A stretch of 32,226 nucleotides of DNA from Phycisphaerae bacterium (GTDB taxonomy: Bacteria; Planctomycetota; Phycisphaerae; SM23-33), in NCBI GenBank assembly GCA_049510055.1, contig JBEKZI010000017.1:1-32226 (forward strand). The letters run 5' to 3'. Positions 8,611 through 22,843 of this stretch are shown piece by piece. Every line of letters starts with the position of its first letter. The first letter of the stretch is position 1. The notes beneath the pieces are model-generated. The model saw only the letters and a list, made by a program, of their open reading frames with translations. It was not told the DNA's origin and ran no database searches. The translations under genes and the position numbers were made by a program.

Positions 8611-8714
8611 GTGCAGGGGTTAGTCGCAGATGGACTTGGTCCTTCGGCCGGCCGATGGTGTATAATAAGGATGACACCAGAGGTCTGCCGACCAACAGGC
8701 AGGTCAACTCTTTC

Positions 8715-9066
8715 GGGGGCGAACTGGCTTCGACCGGACGAGTTGCGGTGTCGGTGGCGTGCCCAGGTTCCAAGGAGGCCTGGTAAAACACCTTGGACTA
8801 ACTTCAGATGCCAATCCCGAATTGGCACTGGCTGCCTAATTAGGTAGCCCGTCCGGTGGGTCTTGCCCGCGAGGCCCGCCAGGACGCAAGCAGCGGGCTT
8901 ACCGGCTGGGAGTGGCCCGGTTACCCAGTCGGGACATTATGGGCGGGCTCGCCTTCGCCGGACCGTGTCGCCGCGGGCCGGCGAGGGGAGACCAAAACAG
9001 CGACTACGCACGTAGAGGCCGGCACTGAAACGTCACGGGACCCGGGTTCGATTCCCGGCGCCTCCA
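8715..9066 (+). ncRNA. ssrA: tmRNA (SsrA), one-piece, ~352 nt
   Basis: The 5' end GGGGGCGAACUGGCUUCGACC matches the tmRNA consensus (GGGGnnGA..UUCGAC). The 3' end GGACCCGGGUUCGAUUCCCGGCGCCUCCA has a T-arm plus an acceptor strand that pairs with the 5' GGGGGCG (6 Watson-Crick pairs and 1 G-U pair). An in-frame tag ORF GCC AAU CCC GAA UUG GCA CUG GCU GCC UAA lies at 8810..8839, about 95 nt from the 5' end; the E. coli resume codon is at about 90 nt. An E. coli-like GCACGUAGA element precedes the T-arm. Confidence 0.8.
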
Positions 9067-9147
9067 TCCTGCTTCGCTCCGGCCTGAGGGGCCGGAGCTT
9101 CGCAGGACTTTGTCCTGCGAAGTAAGCGAAGCGAACTAAAAGCAGGT

Positions 9148-9192
9148 TGCCCTGCGTAGTCTCGGCGCGCCGGGACGAAGCAGGGCATTTTT
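9148..9192 (+). terminator. Intrinsic terminator after ssrA (stem TGCCCTGC ... GCAGGGCA with a nested GC hairpin, then TTTTT)
   Basis: The hairpin plus a T5 tract is read from the sequence. It is preceded by two further perfect hairpins at 9077..9097 and 9101..9119. Confidence 0.65.
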
Positions 9193-9473
9193 ACGTCATC
9201 AGCTCACCTGCGGCTTGCCCGGCTCGCCTCGCCACAGCGAGTCGCCGTGGCGACTTGGCAAGCCGCTGCCAGAAACTGTTTCGACCCCGGGAACACGTGC
9301 TCCATTCTACTTCGCTTCCCGCACGTCAGCCGGAAGCCATTCGCCAGTGCCCTCGTCTGTGGCCGACGTTCACGGTGCCAGAGCATGTTGCCGCTTACGG
9401 CGTGCGGCGCTTTGACGTAATATGACCGGCGGCGGCAACAGGCGCCTTTTGGGACTTTCCAGACGGGAAACGC

Positions 9474-11615
9474 ATGCGGGATTTCACCCGATCTTTGAAG
9501 TACCTCTGGCCTTACCGGCTGCGGATAGGTCTGGCCCTGCTCTGCACGCTGGGTATCAGCGTGCTGTGGGCCGGCGGACTGGCTGCGATCCTGCCGGCGG
9601 CCAAGGTGCTGATGTCTTCCGAGGGCCTGCACGGCTGGGTGTACAGGCTGGCGGCCTCGGACCGCCTGGGCGTGGACCTGGTCTCGTACTTGCCCCCCGA
9701 GCGCACCCAACTCCAGGGCCAGCAGCTCTCTTGGGTGGTGGCGGTGGGGCAGCCCCATCGTTCGCACCGCAACGCCGGCGCCCTGCTGCCGGGCCAGTGG
9801 GTGGTGGGTCTGGAGGATGGCGACGTCGCTCACCGGTTTCTGCGGGCGGATGCACTGCTGCGGCTGCTGGCGATGCAGCAGCCGGATCGGCGGATCACGC
9901 TTCGCGTATGCCGGTCGGACAGCGACCAGATTACGCTGTTGCCTGTGGTGACAAGCACGTTGACCCTGTCGACCCAAGCGATGCTTTGGCTGACCCGGCG
10001 CTTTCCCGAGCCGCGGACCTTCGCGGACCGCTTCCCGATCCTGTTGACGCTGCTGGTCTTCGGGATCGTCATCAGCATCCTGCGCGACGCCCTGCGGATT
10101 CTTCAGGAATTCCTGTCCAGCTCGGCGGTGTGGTACGCGGTGAATGACATCCGCAACGACAACTACAACGTGGCCCTGCGTCTGCCGGTGGGCTATTACG
10201 CCAAGCACGGGACCGCCGACGCGATCAGCCGTTTCACCTATGACGTGGGTATGCTGGCCCGGGGGCTCATCACGTTGCTGAGCAAGACGCTGGTGGAGCC
10301 CGCCAAGGCGTTGGCGACGCTGGCCCTGGCGCTCATCCTGTCCTGGAAGCTGACCCTGATCGCCCTGATCGCCGGTCCGCCGGCATTCCTGGCCATTCGC
10401 CGGCTGGGGCGGGCGATGCGACGCGTTTCGCGCCAGGCGATGCTGAGCATGTCCCAAATGCTGGAGGTGCTGGAGGAGACGCTCGGCGGCATCCGAGTGG
10501 TCAAGGCCTACACCATGGAGAATCGCGAGCGCCGGCGGTTCCTGCGGGTCAACCACCAGTTGCTCCGCCAGAACCTCAAGGTGTTCTTTGTGGAAGCGTT
10601 GACGGCCCCGATCGTGGAGGCGCTGGGGATCACCGCGGCCATGGCCGCCGTAGCCGTGGCGGGATACTGGGTGCTCCACAATCAGCACGACTTGGACGCC
10701 GAGAAGTTCCTGGCGTTGATGGCGTGCCTGGTGGCGATGTTCGACCCGATTCGCAAGCTCTCGTCCGTTTCGACCGTCTTTCACGCCTCGGACGCCGCCG
10801 CGGCGCGGATCAGGGAACTGCACGATGCGCCGCAGGAAGTCACGTCGCCCGGGGCGCCCAGTCTGCCGCGCCACCGGCGCAGCATCGAGTTCCGCCACGT
10901 CAGTTTCCGCTACGACGGGACGAGCGATGACGCCCTTCGCGACGTCAACCTGACTATCCGGGCCGGCGAGAACGTAGCCATCGTCGGGCCCAACGGTTCG
11001 GGCAAGACCACGCTGGTGTCGATGCTCCCGCGATTGTTGGACCCCACGACCGGCCAGGTGCTCATTGATGGGACGGACATCGCGCGGTGCTCTTTGCGGT
11101 CGTTGCGGCGGCAGATCGGGCTGGTGACGCAGGACGCCGTACTTTTCCACGCCACGATCGAGGAGAACATCTCCTACGGTCTGCACCGTTCGCAGCCCGA
11201 CAAGACCCGCCGCGCGGCCGAGCGGGCCTACGTGGACGAATTCATCCGGAAACTGCCCGAAGGATACGGCACCCTTGTGGGCCCCCATGGAGCGACGCTC
11301 TCGGGCGGGGAGAAGCAGCGGATCAGTATCGCTCGTGCCATCCTGCGCGACCCGGCTATCCTCATCTTTGACGAGGCGATGAGCCAGATCGACTCCGATT
11401 CGGAGCACCGGATTCAGCAAGCGATGCAGGAGTTCTCACGTGGCCGGACGACGCTGATCGTCGCGCACCGCTTTGCGACGGTGCTGGCCGCCGGCCGCAT
11501 TGTGGTGATGCAGGCGGGGCGGATTCAGGACAGCGGCACGCACGACGAGTTGATGAGCCGCTGTGAACTCTATCGACACCTCTACGCCACTCAGTTCATC
11601 GCCACGGGCGGCTAG
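9474..11615 (+). CDS. ABC exporter (fused transmembrane and ATPase domains, MsbA/McjD-like) with a ~150-aa extracytoplasmic insertion between TM1 and TM2
   Basis: It has Walker A GPNGSGKTT, ABC signature LSGGEKQR, Walker B ILIFDEAMS and an H-loop IVAHR. Six hydrophobic helices are present, plus a long hydrophilic loop (residues ~48-190) after TM1. It is convergent with the RiPP operon. The 738-aa minus-strand ORF over it is an antisense artefact. Confidence 0.9.
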   Translation: MRDFTRSLKYLWPYRLRIGLALLCTLGISVLWAGGLAAILPAAKVLMSSEGLHGWVYRLAASDRLGVDLVSYLPPERTQLQGQQLSWVVAVGQPHRSHRNAGALLPGQWVVGLEDGDVAHRFLRADALLRLLAMQQPDRRITLRVCRSDSDQITLLPVVTSTLTLSTQAMLWLTRRFPEPRTFADRFPILLTLLVFGIVISILRDALRILQEFLSSSAVWYAVNDIRNDNYNVALRLPVGYYAKHGTADAISRFTYDVGMLARGLITLLSKTLVEPAKALATLALALILSWKLTLIALIAGPPAFLAIRRLGRAMRRVSRQAMLSMSQMLEVLEETLGGIRVVKAYTMENRERRRFLRVNHQLLRQNLKVFFVEALTAPIVEALGITAAMAAVAVAGYWVLHNQHDLDAEKFLALMACLVAMFDPIRKLSSVSTVFHASDAAAARIRELHDAPQEVTSPGAPSLPRHRRSIEFRHVSFRYDGTSDDALRDVNLTIRAGENVAIVGPNGSGKTTLVSMLPRLLDPTTGQVLIDGTDIARCSLRSLRRQIGLVTQDAVLFHATIEENISYGLHRSQPDKTRRAAERAYVDEFIRKLPEGYGTLVGPHGATLSGGEKQRISIARAILRDPAILIFDEAMSQIDSDSEHRIQQAMQEFSRGRTTLIVAHRFATVLAAGRIVVMQAGRIQDSGTHDELMSRCELYRHLYATQFIATGG

Positions 11616-11715
11616 TGACCTTCGCCTTGCCCATGCCATCCGCCGGCGGCCAATGGCCCTGTGTTTCCGGACTGATGCCCCCGGTCTCTCGGAATGCCGA
11701 TGGGGAACCCCCCCC

Positions 11716-13179
11716 CTACCAGGGCACGCGCAGGGCCCGGAGGGGATGCCGCAGGACGAACCGGGCCAGCTTGCGGCGCATCGCCCGCCGGACGGCGAGA
11801 TCCCCTGACGGGGTATCGCGAAGGTAGGCCCACCGCATCTGCGGTTTGACGGTGTACTTCAGGAACCTCCGGTAGGCGCGGTTGAGCTCCTCATCCGACA
11901 TGGCCGTGAGGTTCACCGACGGGCCCGGCACTTCGAAGTAGGAAAGGCTTCCCCAGGTCAGAGTGCTCCGCTCTTGTGGACTGAGGTCCTGGTAGATCGG
12001 CGTGCCGGGCAGCGGGAAAAGCCGGCCGGCGGCGATGATCTCGGGTCTGGCCTGGCGCAGGAACTTGACGGTCTGGTTCAAATCCCATGCCGTTTCGCCG
12101 GGCAGACCTACCATGATGTCGGCGAAGATGCGCAGGCCCGCCTGGCGGGTCAGCAAGACGGCCCGGCGGTTGAGCTCGGCGGTGGCGTTCTTGCCCAGCC
12201 GGCGCAGCGCGTCGCTTGAACCGCTCTCAAAGCCGTACTCCACCTGGATGCACCCGGCCGATTTCATCTGATTCAGCAGCTCGCTGTCCGCTTGGTCCAC
12301 ACGCAGGCAGGCGTCCCATTGGAGCTGTTGGTGCAGGCCGGCGCGTCGGATCTGCTCGCAGAGCTCCAGCAGCCGCGAACGGTCGGCCCCCAGCGTGTCA
12401 TCCTCAAAGTGGATGGCCTCGACGCCGAACCGCCGGCGAGCAACCTGCATCTGCTCGATGACGTACGGAATGGAATGGAACCGCACGCCGACGCCGGAAA
12501 TCAAGTGCCCGGCGCAGAAGCGGCAGCGATTCGTGCAGCCGCGACTGGTGCGAATGTTGATCGCGGCGAGCTTGAGCCAGCGGATCAGGAATCGCCCTGG
12601 CGAGGTGTAGTAATCCATGCCGAATAGGTCGTAGGCGGGCGGTCCCAGGGTGTCCAGGTCCGTTACCGGCGGGCGGTCGGGCGTGCGGACGATGCCGCCG
12701 GCGGTGCGGAAGGCGATTCCCCGCACCGCTGGGCCGGGCCCGCCCTCGGCCAGCTCTCGCAGGGTGATTTCGCCCTCCCCGATGACGGCGACGTCGATCT
12801 GGGGACACTCCTGGAGCAGATGCTCGGGCAGGGCGGTGGGGTGCGGGCCGCCGGCCACTACCAGCGTCGCCGGGCCGCAGATCGTCTTGGCGTCCTGGGC
12901 CGCGAGTTGCCCTTCGGGCACACCCGGGGTTACCAGGGACAGTCCGACTATTTGCGGCTGGAACTCCTGCATCAATGTCTGCAGACTCGCCCGAGCGGCC
13001 GGCCAGTCAAAGCCGTTGCGCACCAACTGTTCCTCGGCGACGTACACCTTGACCTCATGGCCGCTGCGTCTCAGGACGGTCGCGATGCAGGCGATGCCAG
13101 TGGGCACCCATTGGGATCGAAAGATCCCTCGGGGCCAATCGGAGCGAGGAGGCGCGGGATAGACCAGCAGGATTTTCAT
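11716..13179 (-). CDS. B12-binding (class B) radical SAM enzyme
   Basis: An N-terminal cobalamin-binding Rossmann-like domain (MKILLVYPAPP ...) is followed by a radical SAM CxxxCxxC motif (CTNRCRFC). The start at 13179 forms an ATGA overlap with the upstream stop codon. The track ORF extends to 13281, which is unlikely to be the real start. Confidence 0.8.
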   Translation of the reverse strand: MKILLVYPAPPRSDWPRGIFRSQWVPTGIACIATVLRRSGHEVKVYVAEEQLVRNGFDWPAARASLQTLMQEFQPQIVGLSLVTPGVPEGQLAAQDAKTICGPATLVVAGGPHPTALPEHLLQECPQIDVAVIGEGEITLRELAEGGPGPAVRGIAFRTAGGIVRTPDRPPVTDLDTLGPPAYDLFGMDYYTSPGRFLIRWLKLAAINIRTSRGCTNRCRFCAGHLISGVGVRFHSIPYVIEQMQVARRRFGVEAIHFEDDTLGADRSRLLELCEQIRRAGLHQQLQWDACLRVDQADSELLNQMKSAGCIQVEYGFESGSSDALRRLGKNATAELNRRAVLLTRQAGLRIFADIMVGLPGETAWDLNQTVKFLRQARPEIIAAGRLFPLPGTPIYQDLSPQERSTLTWGSLSYFEVPGPSVNLTAMSDEELNRAYRRFLKYTVKPQMRWAYLRDTPSGDLAVRRAMRRKLARFVLRHPLRALRVPW

Positions 13180-14090
13180 CTGGATTTCAACGTACTCCGG
13201 AACCATTGCCGGCGGAATGAGTCGCGCCGAGCGTGTCCGCGCAGGACGACGCCGCGGCTCAGTGCCAGGCGGCTTAACCAAGGGGGCCGGGACAGGCCCA
13301 GACGCCGCGCTAACTCGCGGCAGCGGCTCTCGCCCAGCAGCTTATAGGCCAGCCACAGGCCCATCGCAACCGCCTTGGCCGCCCCGGTGCGGGCCAGGGC
13401 GTCCTTCAGCCAGGCCTCGTCCAGTCCACCGGCCGCTTGACGAACCGCCAGCGTGAGGTCCACCAGCGGTTGCAGGCGATCGAAACTGTGGCTGGCGGCG
13501 CCGTGGACCGCCGCGATCAGGATCGTCCCGGCCGGGCTGGGATGGGGCAGAGGATCGGCTGGAGTCAGTTGCAGGTCCTCGAAGCTCACCGACACGCCGC
13601 GCCGCAAGGTGGGAGAGTTCACCAGGTTGGTGTGCACCTCCACGTGGCCGGCTGATCGCTGGGGCCGATGCCAGACCTCCTCCCCGTAACCCAGGGGGTG
13701 CTTCATGGCGACGACGACCGGCCGGTATCCCAGGTGCTCCATCCGGGGGCGTGTCGCGGCCAGCGCCGACTGCGGGATCAGCAGGTCCACGTCGGTGAAA
13801 GACCTCAGCGACGGGTGAGGATAGAGGCGATCGGCGAAATCGTAACCCTTCAGGACGATCACCGGCAAAGCAGCTTGGCGGAAGTCCTGGGTGATCTCGT
13901 GAGCCTGCTGCCGCAGCGCCAGGCACAGGCCTGTTCGTTGAAGGATCATGCCTGGGACGGATTCCCACAACGCCTGCGCCTTATCATCCCCGTTCCACAA
14001 CACCTGGCCGCGATCCGCCAGGCGGTGGATGTTGGACGCGACCGCCGGCAACACGCCGTGACGATCCGCCAGATCCAGCAGGAGTTTCAT
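13176..14090 (-). CDS. Nucleotidyltransferase-family protein (PF14907-like uncharacterised nucleotidyltransferase)
   Basis: The motif LKGYDFADRLYPHPSLRSFTDVDLLIP matches the family signature (hG-x-aromatic ... R-x-x-DiDlli). The start is taken at ATG 14090 (MKLLLDL); the track ORF begins at an upstream TTG. Family assignment is from memory of the motif and is moderately certain. Confidence 0.65.
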   Translation of the reverse strand: MKLLLDLADRHGVLPAVASNIHRLADRGQVLWNGDDKAQALWESVPGMILQRTGLCLALRQQAHEITQDFRQAALPVIVLKGYDFADRLYPHPSLRSFTDVDLLIPQSALAATRPRMEHLGYRPVVVAMKHPLGYGEEVWHRPQRSAGHVEVHTNLVNSPTLRRGVSVSFEDLQLTPADPLPHPSPAGTILIAAVHGAASHSFDRLQPLVDLTLAVRQAAGGLDEAWLKDALARTGAAKAVAMGLWLAYKLLGESRCRELARRLGLSRPPWLSRLALSRGVVLRGHARRDSFRRQWFRSTLKSR

Positions 14091-14184
14091 CTGTTCCCCC
14101 CGCAAGGGAGCGACCGTGACCGGTATGTCGCGCCCGAGGGGATCGGCCAGTGCCGCCAGAATGGAATAGATCGGCTTCAGAGGT

Positions 14185-15168
14185 TCACCTCAGCAGCGAC
14201 GTGACCAGCGCCCCAAGCTCTTGGAGGCGAGGGCCAAGGCTCACCTCGTACGTGTCGCTCGTGCGAACCAGCTCAGCCATGGCCGCGAACGCCCGCCCGT
14301 CGCTGCCCTCGCGGTGCTTCTCGTACGCACGCACGTTCTCGTTGACCAATCGGACCAGAGCGCGGGTTTTGTCCAGGGGATGCACCTGATGCTGCCAGGG
14401 ATTGTGGGGATTGAGGAAAAGGATCAGCCCCGCCGAGGCGGCCACGCGGGTGGTCGGCGCCGCGGCCGGCCGCACATCCACCAGCACCTCATCGTTTCCG
14501 ATGTGGCCCCTGTGAGGCAGTCCTGCCAGCCACGGCAGCATCTGAATCGTTTGGCGGTGGACCTTGCAGGGGAAGCGAAGGCCCCAGAGCTGCGCATCGT
14601 GGTGCGGCGTGGCCGGGCTGAAGAACGTGATGTCGTCGGCCAGCAGGCTGAAGCCTTCGCCGGCCAGGCCCAGGGCCGTGGTGGTCTTTCCCCTCCCGCT
14701 GAGGCCGGAGATGAGCACGGCCCGTCGCTGCGGCGGACGATCCAGGAACAGGCTGGCGGCGTGGATGACGTAGTGCCCCTGGTCGTTGAGGATGTCGCAG
14801 AGCCACGGCAGGACGCACGCCTCCAGCAGGCACCTTTCGGCCCCGGGCCGGACGACGAACTCCGCCCGCCCCGCCGACAAGTCCACGTCGGCCGTGGCTT
14901 GGTCGATCACCTCGGTTTGGCGTCTTCGCGGATTGCAGCGGAAGATGATTCGACTTCCGTTAGGCAGCGAACCCCGCCAGAATTCCGGCAGGTCCGTCAG
15001 GGCAGGCAAGTGCTGCGCGTAGCGAATGCGGAGGCAAAACGCCCCGTCGCCCGGCTGGGCGGCATAGGCGCCAATGGCGGCCTGCACGGGGGCGAGCAGC
15101 GCCGGGTCGTCCGCCTCGACGGCGATGCGTTCGCCATGAACGTCGAAATGGGCTTGGACGGAACACAT
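14185..15168 (-). CDS. HPr kinase/phosphorylase C-terminal-domain-like P-loop kinase (HprK-related kinase)
   Basis: P-loop LISGLSGRGKTTTALGLAGEGFSLLADD is typical of the HprK-like kinases found in RiPP and lasso clusters. There is no HPr-binding N-terminal domain. Only one in-frame ATG is available. Confidence 0.75.
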   Translation of the reverse strand: MCSVQAHFDVHGERIAVEADDPALLAPVQAAIGAYAAQPGDGAFCLRIRYAQHLPALTDLPEFWRGSLPNGSRIIFRCNPRRRQTEVIDQATADVDLSAGRAEFVVRPGAERCLLEACVLPWLCDILNDQGHYVIHAASLFLDRPPQRRAVLISGLSGRGKTTTALGLAGEGFSLLADDITFFSPATPHHDAQLWGLRFPCKVHRQTIQMLPWLAGLPHRGHIGNDEVLVDVRPAAAPTTRVAASAGLILFLNPHNPWQHQVHPLDKTRALVRLVNENVRAYEKHREGSDGRAFAAMAELVRTSDTYEVSLGPRLQELGALVTSLLR

Positions 15169-15177
15169 AACGTGGAT

Positions 15178-15216
15178 ACTAAAAGCAAGGAGCAGAATAC
15201 ACTGCCCCTTGCTTTC
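15178..15216 (-). promoter_or_regulatory. Stem-loop plus U-tract between the precursor array and the kinase gene; a possible attenuator or partial terminator
   Basis: The minus-strand RNA reads AAAGCAAGG-GGCAG-uguauu-CUGCU-CCUUGCUUUU. The kinase ATG follows 13 nt later. The structure was read directly from the sequence. Confidence 0.45.
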
Positions 15217-15299
15217 GCCGCCATACGGATTTTTGTGTCAAATGGGTTTAGACCGGTACGCTCCCGTCCGCGGCCGAGCCGGTTGCGACGCCTGAAACG

Positions 15300-15410
15300 C
15301 CCCCCCGTTACATCCGAAAGCTGCTCACGCTTCTGAAACGTTGGCTGAGAAGAGGGCTTCTGGGGCGTTTCTACGCTTTCCCTAACCCGATACCGTGGCG
15401 AAGCCGCACT
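15300..15410 (-). pseudogene. Decayed ninth copy of a type-1 precursor-peptide unit (start codon and Shine-Dalgarno lost)
   Basis: It aligns base-for-base with the functional units (for example CATCCGAAAGCTGCTCACGCTTCTGAAACGTTGGCTGAGAAGAGGGCTTCTGGGGCGTTTCTACGC against TATCCGAGAGCTTTTCACGCTTCTGGAGCGTAGGCGGAGAATAGGGTTTCTTCGTTTGCATGC). TCTACGC replaces TGCATGC at the start, and the SD CTCCTTC is mutated to TTTCCCT. Confidence 0.5.
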
Positions 15411-15416
15411 GTCTAT

Positions 15417-15518
15417 TTAAAAGGGCCCCCCTGAGCCGCGGACCGGGCTTTGAGTCGTATCCGAGAGCTTTTCGCGCTTCTGGAGCGTTGGCGGAGAATA
15501 GGGTTTCTTCGTTTTCAT
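15417..15518 (-). CDS. Precursor peptide A, type 1 (33 aa): MKTKKPYSPPTLQKREKLSDTTQ | SPVRGSGGPF
   Basis: AAGGAGAT Shine-Dalgarno 8 nt before the ATG. The leader carries Y-17, P-14, L-12 and T-2. It is not in the ORF track (under 60 aa). It is one of 8 tandem paralogues. Confidence 0.7.
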   Translation of the reverse strand: MKTKKPYSPPTLQKREKLSDTTQSPVRGSGGPF

Positions 15519-15562
15519 GCGATCTCCTTCAACCGGCACTGTGGCGACGCCGCACTGCCCGC

Positions 15563-15667
15563 TTAACGCCTAGCGCCCGAGGTGATGGAGGGACCGCCTT
15601 GAGTCATATCTGAGAGCTTGTCCCGCTTTTGGAGCGTCGGCGGAGAATAGGGCTTCTTCGTTTTCAT
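15563..15667 (-). CDS. Precursor peptide B, type 1 (34 aa): MKTKKPYSPPTLQKRDKLSDMTQ | GGPSITSGARR
   Basis: Hand-translated from the minus strand. AAAGAGCT Shine-Dalgarno-like sequence. Same leader as peptide A; the core differs. Confidence 0.7.
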   Translation of the reverse strand: MKTKKPYSPPTLQKRDKLSDMTQGGPSITSGARR

Positions 15668-15712
15668 GCGAGCTCTTTCAGCCGGCATCGTGGCGACGCC
15701 GCAGAAGCCTAC

Positions 15713-15826
15713 TTAACCCGTACCATCCCTAGCGCCTGAGGTGATGGGGGGACTACCTTGAGTCATATCTGAGAGCTTGTCCCGCTTCTGGAGCGTAGGC
15801 GGAGAATAGGGCTTCTTCGTTTTCAT
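15713..15826 (-). CDS. Precursor peptide C, type 1 (37 aa): MKTKKPYSPPTLQKRDKLSDMTQ | GSPPITSGARDGTG
   Basis: Hand-translated from the minus strand. Leader identical to peptide B. Core carries the ITSG motif. Confidence 0.7.
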   Translation of the reverse strand: MKTKKPYSPPTLQKRDKLSDMTQGSPPITSGARDGTG

Positions 15827-15871
15827 GCGAGCTCTTTCAGCCGGCACCGTGGCGACGCCGCAGAAGCCTGC

Positions 15872-15985
15872 TTAAGCATTACCATCCCTAGCGCCTGAGG
15901 TGATGGGGGGGTCGCCTTGAGTCATATCTGAAAGCTTGTCCCGCTTCTGGAGCGTAGGTGGAGAATAGGGTTTCTTCGTTTTCAT
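15872..15985 (-). CDS. Precursor peptide D, type 1 (37 aa): MKTKKPYSPPTLQKRDKLSDMTQ | GDPPITSGARDGNA
   Basis: Hand-translated from the minus strand. AAAGGAGAT Shine-Dalgarno. Leader identical to peptides B and C. Confidence 0.7.
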   Translation of the reverse strand: MKTKKPYSPPTLQKRDKLSDMTQGDPPITSGARDGNA

Positions 15986-16030
15986 GCGATCTCCTTTAGC
16001 CAGCACCGTGGCGACGCCGCAGAAGCCTAC

Positions 16031-16141
16031 TTAATCATTAGCATCAACGCCCGAGGTGATGGAGGCCCCGCCTTGAGTCGTATCCGAGAGCTTTTCACGC
16101 TTCTGGAGCGTAGGCGGAGAATAGGGTTTCTTCGTTTGCAT
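16031..16141 (-). CDS. Precursor peptide E, type 1 (36 aa): MQTKKPYSPPTLQKREKLSDTTQ | GGASITSGVDAND
   Basis: It is the internal Met of track ORF 16031..16240. AAGGAGAT Shine-Dalgarno before this ATG. Confidence 0.75.
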   Translation of the reverse strand: MQTKKPYSPPTLQKREKLSDTTQGGASITSGVDAND

Positions 16142-16181
16142 GCAATCTCCTTCAACCGGCACCGTGGCGACGCCGCGTTGG

Positions 16182-16292
16182 TCACGGGGGTGTAGGTGTA
16201 ACCCCGCTGACGCCGTCGGGCACAGCGGTGATGTCGGCAAGCCGCTCCAGCTTCTTCAACACGGGTTTGACATAGGGCTTCTTGGCGTTCAT
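16182..16292 (-). CDS. Precursor peptide F, type 2 (36 aa): MNAKKPYVKPVLKKLERLADITA | VPDGVSGVTPTPP
   Basis: It is the internal Met of track ORF 16182..16364. AAGGAAT Shine-Dalgarno. The type-2 leader carries the same Y-17, P-14, L-12 and T-2 positions. Confidence 0.75.
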   Translation of the reverse strand: MNAKKPYVKPVLKKLERLADITAVPDGVSGVTPTPP

Positions 16293-16305
16293 GCGTATTC
16301 CTTGG

Positions 16306-16416
16306 TCACTCGGGTGTAACCCCGCTGACGACGCCGGGCGTACCCTGAGCGGTGATGTCGGCAAGCCGCTCCAGCTTCTTCAACACGGGTTTGGCATAGG
16401 ACTTCTTGGTGTCCAT
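16306..16416 (-). CDS. Precursor peptide G, type 2 (36 aa): MDTKKSYAKPVLKKLERLADITA | QGTPGVVSGVTPE
   Basis: It is the internal Met of track ORF 16306..16488. AAAGGAAT Shine-Dalgarno. Confidence 0.75.
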   Translation of the reverse strand: MDTKKSYAKPVLKKLERLADITAQGTPGVVSGVTPE

Positions 16417-16429
16417 GCGTATTCCTTTT

Positions 16430-16540
16430 TCAACCGGGTGTAGCCCCACTGACGACGCCGGGCGTGCCCTGAGCGGTGATGTCGGCAAGCCGCTCCAGCT
16501 TCTTCAACACGGGTTTGGCATAAGGCTTCTTGGCGTTCAT
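16430..16540 (-). CDS. Precursor peptide H, type 2 (36 aa): MNAKKPYAKPVLKKLERLADITA | QGTPGVVSGATPG
   Basis: It is the internal Met of track ORF 16430..16663. AAAGGAAT Shine-Dalgarno. It is the first gene of the array after B2. Confidence 0.75.
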   Translation of the reverse strand: MNAKKPYAKPVLKKLERLADITAQGTPGVVSGATPG

Positions 16541-16646
16541 GCGTATTCCTTTCGCGTGCGGTCTGCCAAGCACGGAAATACGACCCGTATGAATGAGCGT
16601 CCACCACGTGTGACTTCGGACGAAGCTGGGCGGAAACTTAACACAG

Positions 16647-17117
16647 TTATGGGGCTTGTGCAAGGTCCTCTTTGACGGAATTTTCTTGCGCCGCGGCCCC
16701 GTGGACCAGCACCACCGCCGCCGGGCCGTCCGGGGGCGACGTTAAGGCTATATCATTGAGCGTCACCCAGCCGTGGGCTTGGGTTCGCGGGGCCTCCGGG
16801 TTTTGCGGATACACGCCGATTCGCAAAACGGCCGGGTAGCCTGCCAGGCGCAGGAAGTGAAACAGGGTTAGGGACTGTCGCAGGCAGGGGCGACGGCGCA
16901 TGTTGCGAGGGTTTTTCAGACGTTGCGCTACCCGCTCCACGATATCCTGCCAGGCAATGCCCCGGTAGGGGACCACGGAAGTCGGGGGCGTCAGCACGCG
17001 TAACACTCGCTTGAGCGACAAGACCTTGTCCAGCAGGGGAATGAACGTCGCCACCAGCCAGATGTGCGCCCGTAACAACGGCAATCGCAGCGACATGGGG
17101 CCGCTAGTGTTGCTCAA
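16647..17117 (-). CDS. Lasso-B2-like leader peptidase (transglutaminase-like Cys protease, PF13471-type)
   Basis: The protein has McjB-type catalytic residues: Cys in the RRRPCLRQSLTLFHFL context and His/Asp in QAHGWVTLNDIALTSPPDG. It is ~156 aa, the size of a stand-alone B2 domain. It overlaps the B1 stop by 14 nt; an alternative start lies at 17096. Confidence 0.75.
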   Translation of the reverse strand: MSNTSGPMSLRLPLLRAHIWLVATFIPLLDKVLSLKRVLRVLTPPTSVVPYRGIAWQDIVERVAQRLKNPRNMRRRPCLRQSLTLFHFLRLAGYPAVLRIGVYPQNPEAPRTQAHGWVTLNDIALTSPPDGPAAVVLVHGAAAQENSVKEDLAQAP

Positions 17118-17397
17118 CCAGCAATTTCTCCTGAAGAAGCTTGCCCGCCAAGGCGGTCATGTCCCGGGTAAGCTCCTCTCGCGAGACTTCGTACTGTTCC
17201 CAAAGGGTTTCAATGGCCTCCCCGAGCGTCCGCCGGCCGTCCAGTGCCTGCAGGAAGGCGGCAGTGGTCTCATTGCACGTGTACAGGTACCCGGAGTTGA
17301 GCGAGAACACGACCGTGTCCGATCCGGGGCCCAACGACTGGTAGGTCACGTCGTCGGCCAGCTTCAATCGCAGGTTCAGTAGCGGTATGGCAGTCAT
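17104..17397 (-). CDS. PqqD-family RiPP recognition element (lasso B1-like)
   Basis: Residues 26-122 of the track ORF (MTAIPLLNLRLKLADDVTYQSLGPGSDTVVFSLNSGYLYTCNETTAAFLQALDGRRTLGEAIETLW...) show the PqqD fold pattern. The start at 17397 is chosen to exclude the non-conserved 25-aa extension. Confidence 0.75.
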   Translation of the reverse strand: MTAIPLLNLRLKLADDVTYQSLGPGSDTVVFSLNSGYLYTCNETTAAFLQALDGRRTLGEAIETLWEQYEVSREELTRDMTALAGKLLQEKLLVEQH

Positions 17398-17474
17398 AGA
17401 AAGCTCACCTGAAGGTTTTCGTACCGCCGAATTCGACGGCCGCATTGTATAGTCACCGCCGACTTTCCACAACC

Positions 17475-17518
17475 TGCGGCGAACCTACCCTGGCAAGCCG
17501 GAATCGCGATTTCACACC
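17475..17518 (+). promoter_or_regulatory. Conserved ~45-nt element, copy 1 (TGCGGCGAACCTACCCTGGCAAGCCGGAATCGCGATTTCACACC), containing the perfect palindrome AATCGCGATT
   Basis: It matches 25584..25627 in the same orientation with a few substitutions. The perfect palindrome AATCGCGATT is at 17502..17511. It sits in the divergent region between the B1 gene and the secreted-protein gene. Confidence 0.55.
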
Positions 17519-17678
17519 ATGCCCGCCGATTCTGCGTGTCGCAGAAATGCGAAAAATATAGAGGGTCGGTAACACGTTGGTGACAATTGCCCTCTATCAT
17601 GCCGAGAGTAAATGAGCCGAATTGAGATCTTCGGCACGGGCCTAAACCAATGACTTCGGCAAGATAAAGGGACCAATC

Positions 17679-20165
17679 ATGAGACCACGGTTGATAGTGA
17701 TGGCAGTGGCCGCGACCTTGGCTGCAGTGGCATGCCTGGCGCAGGCCGAAAAAGCCTCCGTCCTTCTGGACAAGGGCATCTACACCGAAGAAACGCTTGG
17801 GAACCCCTCCGCGGCCATCGGCATCTACAGCCAGGTGGTCGCCAGCGGCGAGGCCGACCGCCAGTATGCCGCCCAGGCCCAGTATCGCATCGCGATGTGC
17901 CACCTGAAGCTCAAGCACGACAACGAGGCCCGCGAGGCGCTGAAGACATTCCTGAGCAAGTACAGCGATCAGGAAGAGCTGGCGTCCAAGGCCCGGACCG
18001 CGCTGGAGGACCTGCTGGAGTTCGACCCGGCGGCGCTCATGCCTCCCACCATCGTGGCCTACGTCGAGGTGGGCAGCCCCGGCAAACAGCTCGAGACGGT
18101 CCTGAAGATGCTGAAGGGCACGCCTTTGGCCAATCCGCTGGAGATGATGAATCCAACATCCGCGCCGTCGGATGCCTCCGCGCCGTCGGCGACCTCCGCG
18201 CCGGCGACTTCCTACGGCCGCCCCGCCAGTCCCGCCCAGGTCTTCTCGGCGTTGCTGAATCCCAGCATGCTGAAAGAGTTCAAGAAGCTTCGCAGCATGG
18301 CCGTGGGCGTCTCCGAGATCAAAGGCCGCGGCCAGAGCCCCTTCGTGGCCGTCTTGAGGCCCGGCGACAGCGACGCGCTCCGCGGGATCCTCACGGCCGG
18401 CGTGCTTGCCTCCGGCCAGCCCACCGCCCCGATCGAAGGCATGCAGACGGTGCAACTCAGCCCGGAGATGGCCTGCGCGTTCGACGACAGCGTGTTCCTC
18501 TTTGCCTCCCCGGTGTCTCAACTTGCCTGGAGCGTCCATCAGTATAAGTCCGGCGCGCCCGAACCCAGCCTGCTGACCGCCAACGAGTCGTTTTCGCGGC
18601 TGGCCCCTGCCGCCGATCGCAAAAATGACGCGCTGACGGTCTGGGCGAACCCTTCTCGGCTGCTCCAAAACAAAGCGTACATCCCGCCGGAAGCCCTGGA
18701 GAAAATGATGATCGCAAACGCCTTCGCCGACTTCGAAAACATGGAGGGCGCCGTCGTCCGGTTGCGCCTCAAGGAGACCAGCCTCAGCCTGGAGGCCACC
18801 GTCGCCTACCGCGAGGGGCGCAAAGCGTTTGGGTATGACCTGATCCGCACGTGTCCACTGGACCAGGCCGGTTTTGCCGCCGTTCCTCCGCAGGCGGTGG
18901 GCATCGTGGCCCTGGCCCTGTTGGAGCACACCGCCTCAACAGAACCTCCCGTCGCCGACGTTCGGCAGGAGACCGTCCGCCGTATCACCGGGCTGGACCT
19001 GGGGAGAGAGCTGTTCAGTAATATCGAGCAACTCTCGCTGTTCTTGATGCCGTCCAGCGAGGCGGCGACGGCCCATCCGTTGAGCCGTCTGTCTGTGGTG
19101 GCCCCGTCGCTGGGCCTGGCCATTACGTCGCGCAACCCCGCGCAGACCCTGGCCGTGCTGGACAGGATGTTGACGGTCCAAGGCCTGATGTCGGCAGGTT
19201 CCACCAGCGCCCCGGCGGCGGACGAGCAAGGCATGCGGACGTACGTAATCGGCGCCAGCAACCAGAAGCCGATATCCCTGTGCGTGGCGCAGAAAGGCAA
19301 GACCACGGTGCTGGCGTTCCTTCCGGAAGTGGTCCAGACGTCTCTGACGGCCCTGGGCACGGGCAAGAACGTCACGACCGACGGGCCGATGGCACAGGCC
19401 CTCGGCCAGGTCAGCGACAAGAACAAGGTGGTGCTGGTCAACGCCGGCGGACTGTTCCGCTTGTATGACGCCAGCGTCGCGCCGCCCGCGGCAAAACGCG
19501 ACGCGGCGTCGCAGCCGGCGACGGACAGCCAGGCCGTGGCCGATCAGATCGCCTCGGCCCTGGACGACACGGTAATCCGGCTGGAGACCTCCGAACTGCC
19601 GAACACCATGACGGTCCGCGCCGAGCTATTGGGCATTCCGCCGCTGGCGAAGCTGTTTCCTCTGGTCATGCAGTATCAGCAGCAGCGCATGGCCTTCCAG
19701 AAGGCCAGGAAATCGCAAGCACAACCTTCCCAAGAGCGCAACAAGCTCATGAAGCAGGTCGGAACAGATTTCCTCAAGGCCCTCCAGGCAAATGACGAGG
19801 CGGCGATTGGGAAATTGATCGTCCCGCACTCCTCCGTGGAGGCCAAGATCAAGGACCTACTTGCAGTCCCGGGTCTGGCGGCGTTTCGGTTCCAGGATAG
19901 CGGCAGGGCGCTAAATCTCGGTTGGGTCCTGGTGTACGGGCCCGACAAGACGGATTCCTCGGCGCCCGCGATACTGATCCATCTGCTCAAGCAGGCCAAG
20001 TCCCCGCCGCCGTGGCTCGTCTCGGACGTGGAAATCCTTCCGATCCCGGATGCCATACACCAATTGAAGCAGTACGATTCCAGGGCCACCGGCGGCCCGA
20101 TGCCGGCGCCTGCGCCGGCGCCCGCGCCTGCGGGTGATGATGCGGCGCCCGCCGAGAACAACTGA
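17679..20165 (+). CDS. Secreted 828-aa hypothetical protein (Sec signal peptide, TPR-like N-terminal region, Ala/Pro/Ser-rich linker, C-terminal PAPAPAPA)
   Basis: Signal peptide MRPRLIVMAVAATLAAVACLAQA. The amino-acid composition is coherent. AAAGGGA Shine-Dalgarno. The overlapping 511-aa minus-strand ORF is an artefact. Confidence 0.7.
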   Translation: MRPRLIVMAVAATLAAVACLAQAEKASVLLDKGIYTEETLGNPSAAIGIYSQVVASGEADRQYAAQAQYRIAMCHLKLKHDNEAREALKTFLSKYSDQEELASKARTALEDLLEFDPAALMPPTIVAYVEVGSPGKQLETVLKMLKGTPLANPLEMMNPTSAPSDASAPSATSAPATSYGRPASPAQVFSALLNPSMLKEFKKLRSMAVGVSEIKGRGQSPFVAVLRPGDSDALRGILTAGVLASGQPTAPIEGMQTVQLSPEMACAFDDSVFLFASPVSQLAWSVHQYKSGAPEPSLLTANESFSRLAPAADRKNDALTVWANPSRLLQNKAYIPPEALEKMMIANAFADFENMEGAVVRLRLKETSLSLEATVAYREGRKAFGYDLIRTCPLDQAGFAAVPPQAVGIVALALLEHTASTEPPVADVRQETVRRITGLDLGRELFSNIEQLSLFLMPSSEAATAHPLSRLSVVAPSLGLAITSRNPAQTLAVLDRMLTVQGLMSAGSTSAPAADEQGMRTYVIGASNQKPISLCVAQKGKTTVLAFLPEVVQTSLTALGTGKNVTTDGPMAQALGQVSDKNKVVLVNAGGLFRLYDASVAPPAAKRDAASQPATDSQAVADQIASALDDTVIRLETSELPNTMTVRAELLGIPPLAKLFPLVMQYQQQRMAFQKARKSQAQPSQERNKLMKQVGTDFLKALQANDEAAIGKLIVPHSSVEAKIKDLLAVPGLAAFRFQDSGRALNLGWVLVYGPDKTDSSAPAILIHLLKQAKSPPPWLVSDVEILPIPDAIHQLKQYDSRATGGPMPAPAPAPAPAGDDAAPAENN

Positions 20166-20175
20166 TGATGAACCG

Positions 20176-22155
20176 ATGAACGCGGTTTCCATTGGCAGGG
20201 GTGAAGGCACAGGCCGCAGCCACGTGTTGCGGCCTGTGCTGGTCGTTTTGCTGGCGACGGTCCTGGTGCCGTCGGCCTGCACGTTGTGGTTCATGTATGC
20301 CGCCGTGCAGGAAGTGTCGCTGGCTTCCCGCCAGCGCCTGGCGGATGCCTACGACGGCGCGGTCCGAGGGGCCGCGGCCAGGCTTCAGGACTATTGCTCA
20401 GCCCGGATCGCCTCGCTGTCGGCCGGCGGCGATCCGTCGCCGACGAAGGCCTTCGACCGGCTGGTCTTGGCCCGCGCCGCCGATGCCGTGATCGTCCGCG
20501 ACGGCGCCGGCCGTCTGCTCTACCCCTCCCCCCAGGTTCCCTCCGGGCAGGCCAGAGCGATGTCGCAAGCGTGGCAGTCGGCGGAAGACTTGGAGCACGC
20601 GCAGGCGGACGGCCTGGCTGCCGCAGCCGCCTATGCCCGGATCGCCGACACCGCCCCCAATGCCGACCTGCGGGCTCAGGCGATGCTGGCCCAGGCGCGA
20701 TGCCTGGCCAAGGCGGGGCAGAAGGATCAGGCTGTCGCCATCCTGCGGGCCCTGGCCGAGAATCCCGACTTGCAAGCCGCCAGGGGCGCCCAAGGGCGGC
20801 TGGTGACGCCCAATGCCGTCCTGTTCGCCCTGCAACTGATCAACCGGCCGGAGGATGAGCAGTTCCGCAAGCTGGCGGCGGGCCTGGTGAAACGGCTCAA
20901 CGATTACGAGGAACCGGCGATGCCGCCCAGCCAGCGGCGGTTCCTCATGGCCGCGCTGTGGGAGATGGACAACTCCCTTCCGCCTTTCGCAACGCTTGCG
21001 GCCGAGAACCTGGCGGCTGAGTATCTCAGTCGCCCGCAGCCGGCGCCACAGCCGTCGCAACTAACGCCGACGTCCCTGCCCGGCGTTTGGCAGGCGGCCG
21101 GGCCCGGCGGCACCGTGACGGGTCTGTTCCGGCAGGACCTTCTGCTGGCGAACATGCACTTGGCCATCCAGGCGGACGCCCCCCGGGGAGTGAGCCTGTT
21201 CATAAGGCCGCCGACCGGCGAACCGACGACGCGGCAGCGGGCCTTCGTGACTTTGCCGGCCGGGGCCGCCTTGCCCGGCTGGACGGTGGAGGTCCTGCTG
21301 ACCGGCGACGATCCCTTCGCCGTGGCGGCCCGGCAGCGCAAGGCCGCCATTCTGTGGACGGCCGCCGTCGGCATCATGATGATCCTGGCGCTGGCGGCGG
21401 TGTTGAGCTACTACCTCAGCCGCCAGGTGCGGCTGACGCGGCTGAAAAACGATCTGATCGCCACCGTGTCGCACGAGCTGAAGACCCCCCTGGCCTCCAT
21501 GCGCCTGCTGATCGACACGCTTCTGGAACGGCGCTATGGCGCCCAGGAGCAGGCCGAGGAATATTTAGCGATGATCGCCAAGGAAAATGAGCGCCTCAGC
21601 CGGCTCATCGATAACTTTTTGAATTTCTCGCGGATGGAGCGCCGCAAGACGGCGTTCGTGTTCGCGGCGCTGCCGGCCGATGAGCTGGTCGCCGCGGTCA
21701 TGCGGGCGGCGCCGGATCGGGTGACCCAGCCGCCGTGCCGTTTTGAATTGGACGTGGCGAAAGACTGCCCCGCCGTCCGCGGCGACCGCGACGCGCTGGT
21801 GACCGTCGTGCTGAACCTGCTGGACAATGCCTACAAATACTCCCACGACCCCCGGCGCATTGCGCTTCGCGTCTTCGGACAGGAAGGCCGCCTGCACCTG
21901 GAGGTCCGCGACAATGGCATCGGCCTGTCGCGCCGTTCAGTCCGTCGGGTGTTCCGACGCTTCTACCAGGTGGACCGCAGCCTTTCGCGCTCGGTGGGTG
22001 GTTGCGGTCTGGGGCTGAGCATTGTTAAATTTATCGTCGATGCCCACGGCGGCACCGTGGACGTCTCCAGCCGGCTCGGCCAAGGGAGCACGTTCACCGT
22101 CACGCTGCCGGGCCTGGAAGACGGCGCGGGACACGCAGGCCATGATGAAAGCTGA
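20176..22155 (+). CDS. Sensor histidine kinase (TM helix, large periplasmic domain, second TM helix, HisKA, HATPase)
   Basis: H-box SHELKTPLASMRLLIDTLLE. N box LLDNAYKYS. G boxes DNGIGL and GLGLSIVKFIVDAHGG. The start is taken at ATG 20176; the track ORF begins at GTG 20134. Confidence 0.85.
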   Translation: MNAVSIGRGEGTGRSHVLRPVLVVLLATVLVPSACTLWFMYAAVQEVSLASRQRLADAYDGAVRGAAARLQDYCSARIASLSAGGDPSPTKAFDRLVLARAADAVIVRDGAGRLLYPSPQVPSGQARAMSQAWQSAEDLEHAQADGLAAAAAYARIADTAPNADLRAQAMLAQARCLAKAGQKDQAVAILRALAENPDLQAARGAQGRLVTPNAVLFALQLINRPEDEQFRKLAAGLVKRLNDYEEPAMPPSQRRFLMAALWEMDNSLPPFATLAAENLAAEYLSRPQPAPQPSQLTPTSLPGVWQAAGPGGTVTGLFRQDLLLANMHLAIQADAPRGVSLFIRPPTGEPTTRQRAFVTLPAGAALPGWTVEVLLTGDDPFAVAARQRKAAILWTAAVGIMMILALAAVLSYYLSRQVRLTRLKNDLIATVSHELKTPLASMRLLIDTLLERRYGAQEQAEEYLAMIAKENERLSRLIDNFLNFSRMERRKTAFVFAALPADELVAAVMRAAPDRVTQPPCRFELDVAKDCPAVRGDRDALVTVVLNLLDNAYKYSHDPRRIALRVFGQEGRLHLEVRDNGIGLSRRSVRRVFRRFYQVDRSLSRSVGGCGLGLSIVKFIVDAHGGTVDVSSRLGQGSTFTVTLPGLEDGAGHAGHDES

Positions 22156-22843
22156 TCCGACTACCGACGAAACAATCCTCATCGTCGAGGACGAGCCCGC
22201 CATGCTGCGGGGCCTGAAGGACAATTTTCAGTTCGAGGGCTACCGCGTCCTGACGGCCGCCGACGGCGAGAAAGGGCTGGAGCTCGCCTGCGACGCCAAA
22301 CCGGACCTGATCCTCCTGGACATCATGCTGCCCAAGGTGAACGGCTATGAGATATGCCGGCTCCTGCGAAGCGAGGGGCTGGACATGCCGATCATCATGC
22401 TGACGGCCAAGGGGCAGGAGAGCGACATCATCCTGGGGCTGAACCTCGGCGCCGACGATTACGTCACCAAGCCTTTCAGCATCAAGGAGCTGCTGGCCCG
22501 CGTGCGGACGATGCTCCGTCGCCGCCGCCAGAAACAGCAACCGGTGATGCGAGCCGGCGACCTGGAACTGGACCTCGCCAGCCACCGGTTGCGGCGGGGG
22601 GGCAAGGAAGTGCCGCTCACGGCCAAGGAATTCGCCTTGCTTGAGCTGTTCTTCCGCCGGGCGGGCAAGGCCCTGACGCGGGATGAGATCCTGCGGACGG
22701 TGTGGGGCTACAACGTGTTCGTCACCTCCCGCAGCGTGGACCGATTCATCAACACGTTGCGGGCCAAGATCGAGGACGACCCCGCCAAACCCATCTGGAT
22801 CAAGACCGTCCGCCAGATAGGCTATCGCTTCGAACTTCCGTGA
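22142..22843 (+). CDS. OmpR-family response regulator (receiver plus winged-helix domain)
   Basis: Receiver domain ILIVEDEP ... LILLDIMLP ... MLTAKG. The C-terminal end IGYRFELP is typical of OmpR/PhoB. The start overlaps the kinase stop by 14 nt. Confidence 0.9.
   Translation: MMKADPTTDETILIVEDEPAMLRGLKDNFQFEGYRVLTAADGEKGLELACDAKPDLILLDIMLPKVNGYEICRLLRSEGLDMPIIMLTAKGQESDIILGLNLGADDYVTKPFSIKELLARVRTMLRRRRQKQQPVMRAGDLELDLASHRLRRGGKEVPLTAKEFALLELFFRRAGKALTRDEILRTVWGYNVFVTSRSVDRFINTLRAKIEDDPAKPIWIKTVRQIGYRFELP

Follow-up and report, generated by a model that had tools for sequence, protein, structure and literature searches.

A two-module gene block probably inserted downstream of the tmRNA gene in an uncultured Phycisphaerae lineage

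The region around the transfer-messenger RNA (tmRNA) gene ssrA was analyzed in a 32,226-nt stretch of DNA from a Phycisphaerae bacterium (assembly GCA_049510055.1, contig JBEKZI010000017.1, positions 1 to 32,226), hereafter called the window. Judged from its predicted features, 8715-9066 is a functional single-copy tmRNA gene of this uncultured member of the Planctomycetota. The chromosome was collinear with that of relatives up to the last base of ssrA and variable beyond it, which marks the ssrA 3′ flank as a recombination hot spot in this clade. We consider it likely that an ordinary tmRNA gene is followed here by such a hot spot, and that a 13.6-kb block of two modules, one resembling a peptide-antibiotic cluster and the other a sensor unit, both from the lineage's own gene pool, was inserted there in the window's lineage. 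That phages and islands land in tmRNA genes is long established, and Williams reportedly treated such integration in general in 2002/2003. A first-pass annotation of the window had called the tmRNA and raised the hypothesis that an island for a ribosomally synthesized, post-translationally modified peptide (RiPP), starting at the ssrA terminator, was acquired there.

Gene order on the two sides of ssrA

ARAGORN, run on the window, placed the tmRNA at 8715-9066 (+) with the tag ANPELALAA*, in exact agreement with the first-pass call. The covariance model RF00023 (Rfam) scored 153.1 bits on 8715-9069 (gathering score 47; E 1.4e-60), with model positions 1-374 of 374 matched. The gene map of the window was drawn from analyses of GC content at third codon positions (GC3) and of Pfam domains. 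Upstream, the genes were argJ, argC, rpsI, rplM, a PCC-domain gene, two aldo-keto-reductase (AKR)/ferredoxin genes, csrA and mtnA, followed by ssrA; typA and other housekeeping genes came past the block. Metagenome contigs from peat and soil, one of them 190 kb long and spanning the window, encode proteins identical to those of the window, and ERZ27250073 and JGI 3300018024 are examples of samples with this species. The nearest MtnA matches were Phycisphaerae metagenome-assembled genomes at ~81% identity. The following features frame the comparison.

8715-9066, + strand: tmRNA (ssrA), one-piece type (ARAGORN, RF00023)
9067-9304, + strand: 238-nt relic of an earlier insertion, common to L013 (3215-3370), starting with TCCnnCTTCGCTCC and ending in the surrogate motif described below (alignment)
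9305-22877, no single strand: 13.6-kb block, at this site only in the window's species (breakpoints; absent after ssrA in L014, L186 and L187)
22878-22893, + strand: tail of the ancestral ssrA terminator, GGGCCGCTTCGTTATC (L013/L014 homology resumes)
22896-24982, + strand: typA unit, with a promoter-like TTGCGT-18-TATACT (22896-22925), a 33-aa upstream open reading frame (ORF; 22938-23039) and typA/bipA (23135-24982) (Pfam, gene call, L013 alignment)

The search for mtnA loci in species-representative genomes returned 80 (L013-L092), and 40 of the best matches were scanned; ssrA adjoined mtnA in only two of these 40, which were the closest ones (L013 and L014). Two further mtnA-ssrA loci, L186 and L187, were recovered via a protein database. 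The segment argJ/argC-rpsI-rplM-AKR-csrA-mtnA-ssrA was collinear with the window in L014, L186 and L187 at ~80% nucleotide identity, and these three kept the nine-gene order argJ-argC-rpsI-rplM-AKR-AKR-csrA-mtnA-ssrA; L013, a 4-kb contig showing csrA-mtnA-ssrA, kept it partly. In every one of the four, homology to the window ended at base 9066, the last base of ssrA. Methyltransferase genes lay between mtnA and ssrA in L013 (1780-2650) and L187 (8960-10319) and not in the window; those of L187 were precomputed Pfam hits, and that of L013 was a reading of the sequence only. These inserts indicate some instability on the upstream side of ssrA as well.

The DNA that follows ssrA differed in all five genomes. 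In L014 and L186, a hairpin (GTGAGCGT...GCGAAACGCTCTCTG) and a terminator came directly after ssrA, and then unrelated genes. In L013, ssrA was followed by a 156-nt insert, the same hairpin and terminator, the typA promoter and typA, with the conserved typA promoter region ~220 nt after ssrA. The window had 238 nt homologous to the L013 insert, then 13.6 kb (9305-22877), then L013 homology again from 22878. Because the hairpin-terminator stood directly 3′ of ssrA not only in L014 and L186, and was found there in the more distant metagenomic relatives L166, L167 and L162 as well, this arrangement was taken as ancestral; the window is the genome in which the ancestral hairpin was lost. The breakpoints between window and L013 were 9304/3370 and 22878/3430 (blastn, Smith-Waterman). 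At the position of the block, L013 carried 59 nt of the ancestral post-ssrA spacer, made up of the hairpin and the beginning of the old terminator. The tail of that terminator, GGGCCGCTTCGTTATC, matched L014 11646-11661 at 15/16, a score reached by 2/500 shuffles, and from L013 3430, equal to window 22878, identity ran at 85-88%.

Synteny was thus interrupted 3′ of ssrA by a block that is absent at this site from L013, L014, L186 and L187. The earlier claim that the DNA after ssrA is lineage-specific was borne out, as the RiPP genes were missing at the site in all four and L013 had ssrA adjoining typA. The comparison of mtnA-ssrA-typA proposed there was run: L013 lacked the block and had typA shortly after ssrA, and none of the compared relatives had the island at this site. 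The left edge, on the other hand, had been placed at the ssrA terminator and had to be moved; it lies 238 nt downstream of ssrA, at the end of the relic shared with L013. By parsimony with two outgroups, we infer that the block was inserted in the window's lineage and not lost from the others, since losses would have required three or more independent deletions, none of them leaving a scar.

Elements at ssrA were found in relatives, consistent with the first-pass assumption that ssrA serves as an integration site. In L187, a 2.2-kb insert with a GC content of 0.59, one 454-aa polytopic membrane protein and no integrase lay between ssrA and a 96-nt direct repeat that copies the ssrA 3′ end (89/96 identical, the last 36 nt perfect; locus 10988-17335). 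L187 10988-17335 is a textbook ssrA island remnant. In more distant relatives, a tyrosine integrase gene lay 106 nt after ssrA in L152 (Phage_integrase, E 7e-25), and large serine recombinase genes came directly after ssrA in L144 and L162. Restriction-modification and CRISPR genes also occupied the post-ssrA position: an Eco57I-type methylase in L149, a Type ISP restriction enzyme in L137 and Cas1/Cas2 in L176. A 28-nt tmRNA signature recovered 43 metagenomic loci, none of which carried the window's genes, which limits what these loci tell to the hot spot itself. In IMG/VR, 41 stretches contained the 23-nt end of the window's ssrA; ~18 of these lacked a full tmRNA, and one provirus had two copies. 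Contig ends were also considered; five full contigs stopped 3-31 nt past ssrA and five others inside ssrA, and this was given little weight. Single-ORF mini-insertions directly after ssrA were observed in L166, L160 and L161; in L160 and L161, a 110-aa ORF just after ssrA has a putative GIY-YIG-like N-terminus, FFVYILVCADGAYYVGST.

Contents and ancestry of the 13.6-kb block

The block held the following genes.

9373-17475, no single strand: RiPP module, 8.1 kb (Pfam, NCBIfam; edges by L177 and L182 homology)
9474-11615, + strand: ATP-binding cassette (ABC) exporter (Pfam/NCBIfam)
11716-13281, − strand: B12-radical S-adenosylmethionine (SAM) protein (Pfam/NCBIfam)
13176-14105, − strand: NTP_transf_5 nucleotidyltransferase (Pfam/NCBIfam)
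14185-15168, − strand: HprK-related kinase (Pfam/NCBIfam)
~15307-16663, − strand: precursor genes, eight to nine in tandem (sequence; nine repeat copies)
16647-17117, − strand: lasso-B2-like protease (NCBIfam lasso_biosyn_B2)
17104-17472, − strand: PqqD/B1 (PF05402)
17679-22843, + strand: second module, made of a secreted tetratricopeptide repeat (TPR) protein (17679-20165), a histidine kinase (HisK; 20176-22155) and an OmpR-type response regulator (RR; 22142-22843) (Pfam, gene calls)

The exporter was said in the first-pass annotation to start close to ssrA, and it does: its ATG at 9474 is 408 nt past the ssrA 3′ end and ~280 nt past the T-run of the terminator. The picture of one RiPP island, in contrast, gave way to two separately conserved modules. 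Nucleotide homology between the window and the module copies in L177 and L182 spanned 9373-17475 and ended there, indicating that the RiPP module is a discrete 8.1-kb unit, and the spacers flanking it had no homology between window and L177. The module was present in five inspected loci (L177, L179, L181, L182 and L183), each time in a different neighborhood. L177 and L182 had the full set of PqqD, B2, precursors, kinase, nucleotidyltransferase and radical SAM genes plus a convergent ABC gene; in L181 the module extended as far as the radical SAM gene, next to which came an unannotated gene of 518 aa; in L179 and L183 the contig edge fell within the radical SAM gene. The three-gene TPR-HisK-RR unit occurred in L184 and L185 without adjoining RiPP genes, ssrA or typA. 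As the two units are found separately elsewhere, the 13.6-kb block is a composite of two independent modules.

The origin of the block was then judged by composition and divergence. The GC content of the precursor array was 0.57-0.61 against 0.64-0.70 in the surroundings, confirming that the array is less GC-rich. As a sign of foreign origin this observation did not stand, because the tetranucleotide usage of the enzyme and exporter genes is that of the host: r with the surrounding chromosome was 0.95-0.97 over 8.6-15.6 kb and 16.6-22.6 kb, and only windows containing the tandem precursor array deviated, with z down to -4.2. Such a deviation is expected of an array in which very small genes are repeated in tandem and much of the DNA is spacer. 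Low GC and ssrA adjacency are therefore insufficient to call horizontal acquisition. Moreover, the module proteins had 76-88% amino-acid identity to the copies in L177, L179, L181, L182 and L183. Mean amino-acid identity was 82.1% for the module (window vs L177) and 82.5% for core genes (window vs L186); L177 and L186 come from the same sample and may be one genome or two. Because the module had diverged as much as the core, it would come from the lineage's own gene pool and not have been imported from afar, and the suggestion of acquisition from outside was not upheld. By these measures the block looks home-grown, not foreign, and the donor was presumably the same genome or a close relative and not a distant organism. 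The locus serves as a worked example of a biosynthetic gene cluster that moved into an ssrA hot spot from within the gene pool of the lineage.

The RiPP module is probably the more interesting object than the ssrA locus. Its B1 protein matched PF05402 with E 1.6e-12, and B2 scored 46 bits with NCBIfam lasso_biosyn_B2 against a cut-off of 33. The leaders had YxxPxL...Tx spacing with Thr at -2, and the cores were short and Gly/Ser/Pro-rich, for example GSPPITSGARDGTG and GGPSITSGARR. Lasso clusters with HPr-kinase-like (K) and nucleotidyltransferase (N) tailoring genes are known, such as those of paeninodin and pseudomycoidin (reviewed in PMC8498205). The module resembles these K/N clusters in its split B1 (PqqD) and B2 (transglutaminase-like), kinase homologue, nucleotidyltransferase, ABC exporter and leader spacing; it differs from them in having no cyclase, a B12-radical SAM gene instead, unsuitable cores and eight to nine tandem precursors (PMC8498205). 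No lasso cyclase (asparagine-synthetase-like C) was found in the window, L177, L179, L181, L182 or L183. A lasso core was defined by an N-terminal Gly, Ala, Ser or Cys together with Asp or Glu at position 7-9, and the cores had no Asp/Glu at positions 7-9. The missing cyclase and the unsuitable cores mean that the module is not to be filed as a lasso cluster; from its gene content, this cyclase-less lasso-like module may represent an undescribed RiPP class.

Further features of the block were recorded. The precursor array comprised two sub-families with repeat units of 159 nt and 124 nt, and two >1-Mb Joint Genome Institute (JGI) contigs of the window's species ended in or beside it, which suggests that the array breaks assemblies. 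ARAGORN called a 93-nt tRNA-Leu(gag) at 18137-18229 (-) that is almost certainly a false positive: it lies in the TPR ORF, has no Rfam call, and coincides with an 18-nt tandem repeat encoding an Ala/Pro/Ser-rich linker. Two candidate repeats around the RiPP module were set aside. The 27-nt inverted repeat 9211-9237/17474-17500 (21/27) was equaled in 3/300 shuffles, is absent at L177 and L182 and is probably due to chance; the 10-nt direct repeat TGGCAAGCCG is likewise absent at L177 and L182 and was treated as chance.

A surrogate ssrA-end motif and the proposed entry of the block

No Phage_integrase, Resolvase or Recombinase domain was present in Pfam scans and gene tables of the window plus ~5 kb on the left and ~8 kb on the right, extending the first-pass statement that the window has no integrase. 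A second copy of the 23-nt ssrA 3′ end was found neither in the window, at up to 3 mismatches, nor in 46 kb of sequence from the same species (-5.4 to +40.6 kb), at up to 5. Searches of both with 23-, 18-, 15- and 12-mers of the ssrA 3′ end, allowing mismatches, gave chance-level hits, the best being inverted and inside the ABC gene. The block had none of the ssrA repeat, integrase and deviant composition of an integrative island, and did show the break in synteny. The reported absence of a direct repeat matching the ssrA 3′ end held for the 23-mer; the relevant repeat turned out to be a diverged surrogate motif at the end of the relic.

9270-9304, + strand: surrogate ssrA-3′-end motif CAGAAACTGTTTCGACCCCGGGAACACGTGCTCCA, 35 nt, attR-like junction marker (nhmmer, in-register junctions)

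Over its first 93 nt, the relic shared 76% identity with the DNA that immediately follows ssrA in L169. Beyond the terminator, only 9256-9304 of the post-ssrA spacer aligned with L013 (3321-3370; Smith-Waterman score 46, shuffle maximum 35), and the end of this alignment is the breakpoint between the two genomes. Copies of the motif core CAGAGACTGTTTCGACCACAGGAACACTTGCTCCA were present in the window's species, L013, L166, L187 (3.8 kb beyond the island) and L177 (three), and nowhere else in 2.1 Mb of collected loci (blastn, nhmmer profile); strict and relaxed patterns had no matches in IMG/VR viral contigs. In L013, L166 and L177 copy 2, the motif's terminal CTCCA was joined in exact register to sequence that follows true ssrA ends elsewhere. 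The post-motif sequence of L013 matched the post-ssrA sequences of L014 and L166 at 19/20, that of L166 matched its own and the L014 post-ssrA sequence at 20/20, and that of L177 copy 2 matched L143 at 19/20 and L168 at 18/20 (p ~1e-9 to 1e-12 per comparison; 36 comparisons). Moreover, L166 (oriented 785-1608) contained a 770-nt insert flanked by 44-nt direct repeats starting at the motif junction, with the motif at the distal end; the insert holds one 210-aa ORF with no Pfam match. The in-register junctions and the L166 insert indicate that the motif stands in place of the ssrA 3′ end, on the distal, attR-like side of insertions. It is a concrete marker that could be used for mapping island boundaries and cassette traffic in Phycisphaerae genomes. 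The TCCnnCTTCGCTCC family followed ssrA in the window, L169 and L187, where the island is bounded by a true direct repeat, and came after motif copy 1 of L177 at 13-14/20; on our reading of these positions, it behaves as an element-side arm. The motif was also considered as a decayed ssrA copy and this was rejected, as Smith-Waterman alignment of the last 80 nt of ssrA with the downstream spacer was not significant in the window or L013.

We tentatively prefer, at somewhat less than even confidence, a mechanism in which the block entered site-specifically at the surrogate junction and the distal junction was lost afterwards. Positions 9067-9304 would be the relic of one element, and the 13.6-kb block would begin at the junction after it. 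The block would have entered at this surrogate attachment (att) junction by site-specific recombination catalyzed in trans, and the distal junction, consisting of the motif and ~60 nt of ancestral spacer, would later have been deleted, fixing the block in place. Such an entry is proposed because the breakpoint is the motif's last base and because direct motif copies 7.7 kb apart in L177 bracket the same RiPP module, leaving no room for an integrase. The main alternative mechanism is a recombination-driven relocation exploiting a permissive site. That the 35-nt motif is the attachment site of an undescribed integrase-less, trans-mobilized cassette family of Phycisphaerae is unlikely enough to be offered as speculation. 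If true, whole modules would travel as cassettes to and from the ssrA flank and from one close relative to another; the cassettes would build up in tandem and be fixed on deletion of the distal junction, the cyclase-less RiPP cluster being an example of the cargo.

Several points weigh against insertion in the window's lineage at a surrogate ssrA end. The motif was not significantly similar to the ssrA 3′ end, with TTCGA and the terminal CTCCA as the only common parts, and the post-motif sequence of the window resembled the TCCnnCTTCGCTCC element-side family weakly (12/20, p ~0.05 after correction). The orientation of the RiPP module relative to the motif is opposite in window and L177, which a single fixed attP-attB reaction does not predict, and 4/5 of the other module copies are without a nearby motif. 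Neither the window nor 46 kb of the species has an integrase, a second motif copy or an ssrA repeat bounding the block. At the right junction, 22844-22877, no match and no att-like sequence were found, which makes the deleted distal junction an ad hoc step. The apparent polarity rests on four relatives at ~80% identity, with none found that is closer and lacks the block. Because synteny is generally poor among planctomycete genomes, ordinary rearrangement could account for part of the downstream variation.

The other explanations were weighed against the same evidence. If the adjacency were a coincidence, with the block placed by ordinary illegitimate or homologous recombination and the motif some local element with no bearing on it, for instance a terminator or the end of a small RNA, then the missing recombinase and flanking repeats, the differing module orientation and the four motif-less module copies would fit, and the mtnA-ssrA adjacency is itself common only to L013, L014, L186 and L187. 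Nine collinear upstream genes against downstream DNA that changes in all relatives from the last ssrA base, a breakpoint on the motif's last base, and a motif in register with post-ssrA sequences in three genomes, which neither a terminator nor a small RNA explains, make such a coincidence decidedly improbable. A residence of both the RiPP and the TPR-HisK-RR units between ssrA and typA in the common ancestor, with deletion in the relatives, is even less probable, given the scar-free deletions counted above. The RiPP module is old in the lineage, with homologues of the HprK-related kinase forming a graded series from 77% down to ~35% identity, and the window's 131-aa gene (30972-31367) has a homologue in L181 that lies ~4 kb from the RiPP module there, a hint of remnant linkage; L014 and L186, however, have an uninterrupted ssrA-hairpin-terminator, L013 has a collinear relic-hairpin-terminator-typA, the window is the genome without the ancestral hairpin, and the modules sit in unrelated contexts elsewhere.

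Least probable of all, and very much so, is a classical, recently acquired foreign island, brought into the ssrA 3′ end with the RiPP cluster by the integrase-bearing element of a distant donor. Adjacency to ssrA, absence from syntenic relatives, an att-site role of ssrA for elements in relatives and for viruses with the same 23-mer, and the lower GC of the array all agree with it. It is opposed by the lack of an integrase and of an ssrA direct repeat in 46 kb, a left breakpoint 238 nt beyond ssrA, enzyme genes of host-like composition, sister-genome modules as diverged as core genes, and the composite nature of the block. Insertion of home-grown modules thus stays the preferred account, and the locus is a further example of a known phenomenon, with an insertion mechanism for the block that we infer from its junctions.

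A close parallel is known from Dehalococcoides, in which variable islands lie directly downstream of single-copy ssrA as tandem segments with repeat junctions, some without an integrase and called possible 'cis-mobilizable elements' fixed in the chromosome (McMurdie et al. 2011, PMC3146451). The present locus is alike in its variable post-ssrA region and syntenic upstream side, and the motif-bracketed module of L177 resembles the integrase-less Dehalococcoides units bounded by ssrA repeats (PMC3146451). The window's relatives have a true direct repeat of ssrA sequence and recombinases of the serine or tyrosine type; the window itself has no 20-bp ssrA repeat or integration module. Its junction is instead a diverged 35-nt surrogate, with identity extending into the post-ssrA sequence and not the T-loop. 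Unlike the low-GC Dehalococcoides islands, the block is native in composition, and its cargo is a RiPP cluster and a two-component module. The analysis extends the picture of insertion at ssrA to the little-studied Phycisphaerae, with a main result that is confirmatory and two leads: the surrogate motif, at which cassettes may attach, and the lasso-like RiPP module that has no cyclase.

Parts of the tmRNA gene and its neighbors

The tmRNA is real and unremarkable, a standard member of its family. Compared with the standard one-piece tmRNA (RF00023), it is alike in the full covariance-model architecture, the tag ORF ending in ALAA and the possession of its own terminator; there is nothing unusual, with CCA unencoded and a leader that carries a hairpin insert relative to its relatives. 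Its parts are given below.

8659-8666, + strand: likely ssrA promoter -10 element, TG + TATAAT (conservation and consensus)
8810-8839, + strand: tag ORF GCC AAT CCC GAA TTG GCA CTG GCT GCC TAA = ANPELALAA*, gene positions 96-125 (ARAGORN)
9070-9192, + strand: three-way hairpin (9070-9133), then the present ssrA terminator with stem 9148-9187 and T-run 9188-9192 (fold)

The 3′ end is the discriminator A, and the next bases are TCC. The tRNA-Ala-like domain, as read from the sequence, has the acceptor GGGGGCG/CGCCUCC with G3:U70 and the T-arm CCGGG-UUCGAUU-CCCGG. The window ssrA was 80-87% identical to those of L013, L014, L186 and L187. Tags in relatives were ANSNLALAA, ANSNLAMAA and ASDTLCMAA; the last, predicted for the L186 tmRNA (11216-11566), is unusual in having Cys-Met ahead of the terminal AA. 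No smpB copy was present among the genes of the window.

The -10 box lies within an 18-nt block, GGCCGATGGTGTATAATA, that was identical across window, L013 and L014 in the alignment, and this TATAAT block is likely ssrA's own promoter. A simple promoter scan of the window did not list the 8659-8666 box. In the 5′ leader (8680-8714), a hairpin-forming insert of ~20 nt, GGTCTGCCGACCAACAGGCAGG, was observed that L013 and L014 do not have. Downstream of the gene, the post-ssrA region folded at -76.9 kcal/mol (z -5.8 vs shuffles), and its GC-rich stem and T-run agree with the terminator noted in the first pass. The terminator was homologous in alignment to GCCCTG...AGGGCATCTTTT of L013, and an Rfam search of 9060-9480 at a permissive threshold returned sub-threshold noise only.

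On the far side of the block, the typA leader (22896-23135) was better conserved with L013 (85-88%) than the coding genes were. The 33-aa upstream ORF, MRRLCTIGLALFARLFASRLRTLRAVNWPWPTA, differed from its L013 counterpart by five synonymous and two non-synonymous changes, which suggests that it may be a translated leader peptide before typA.

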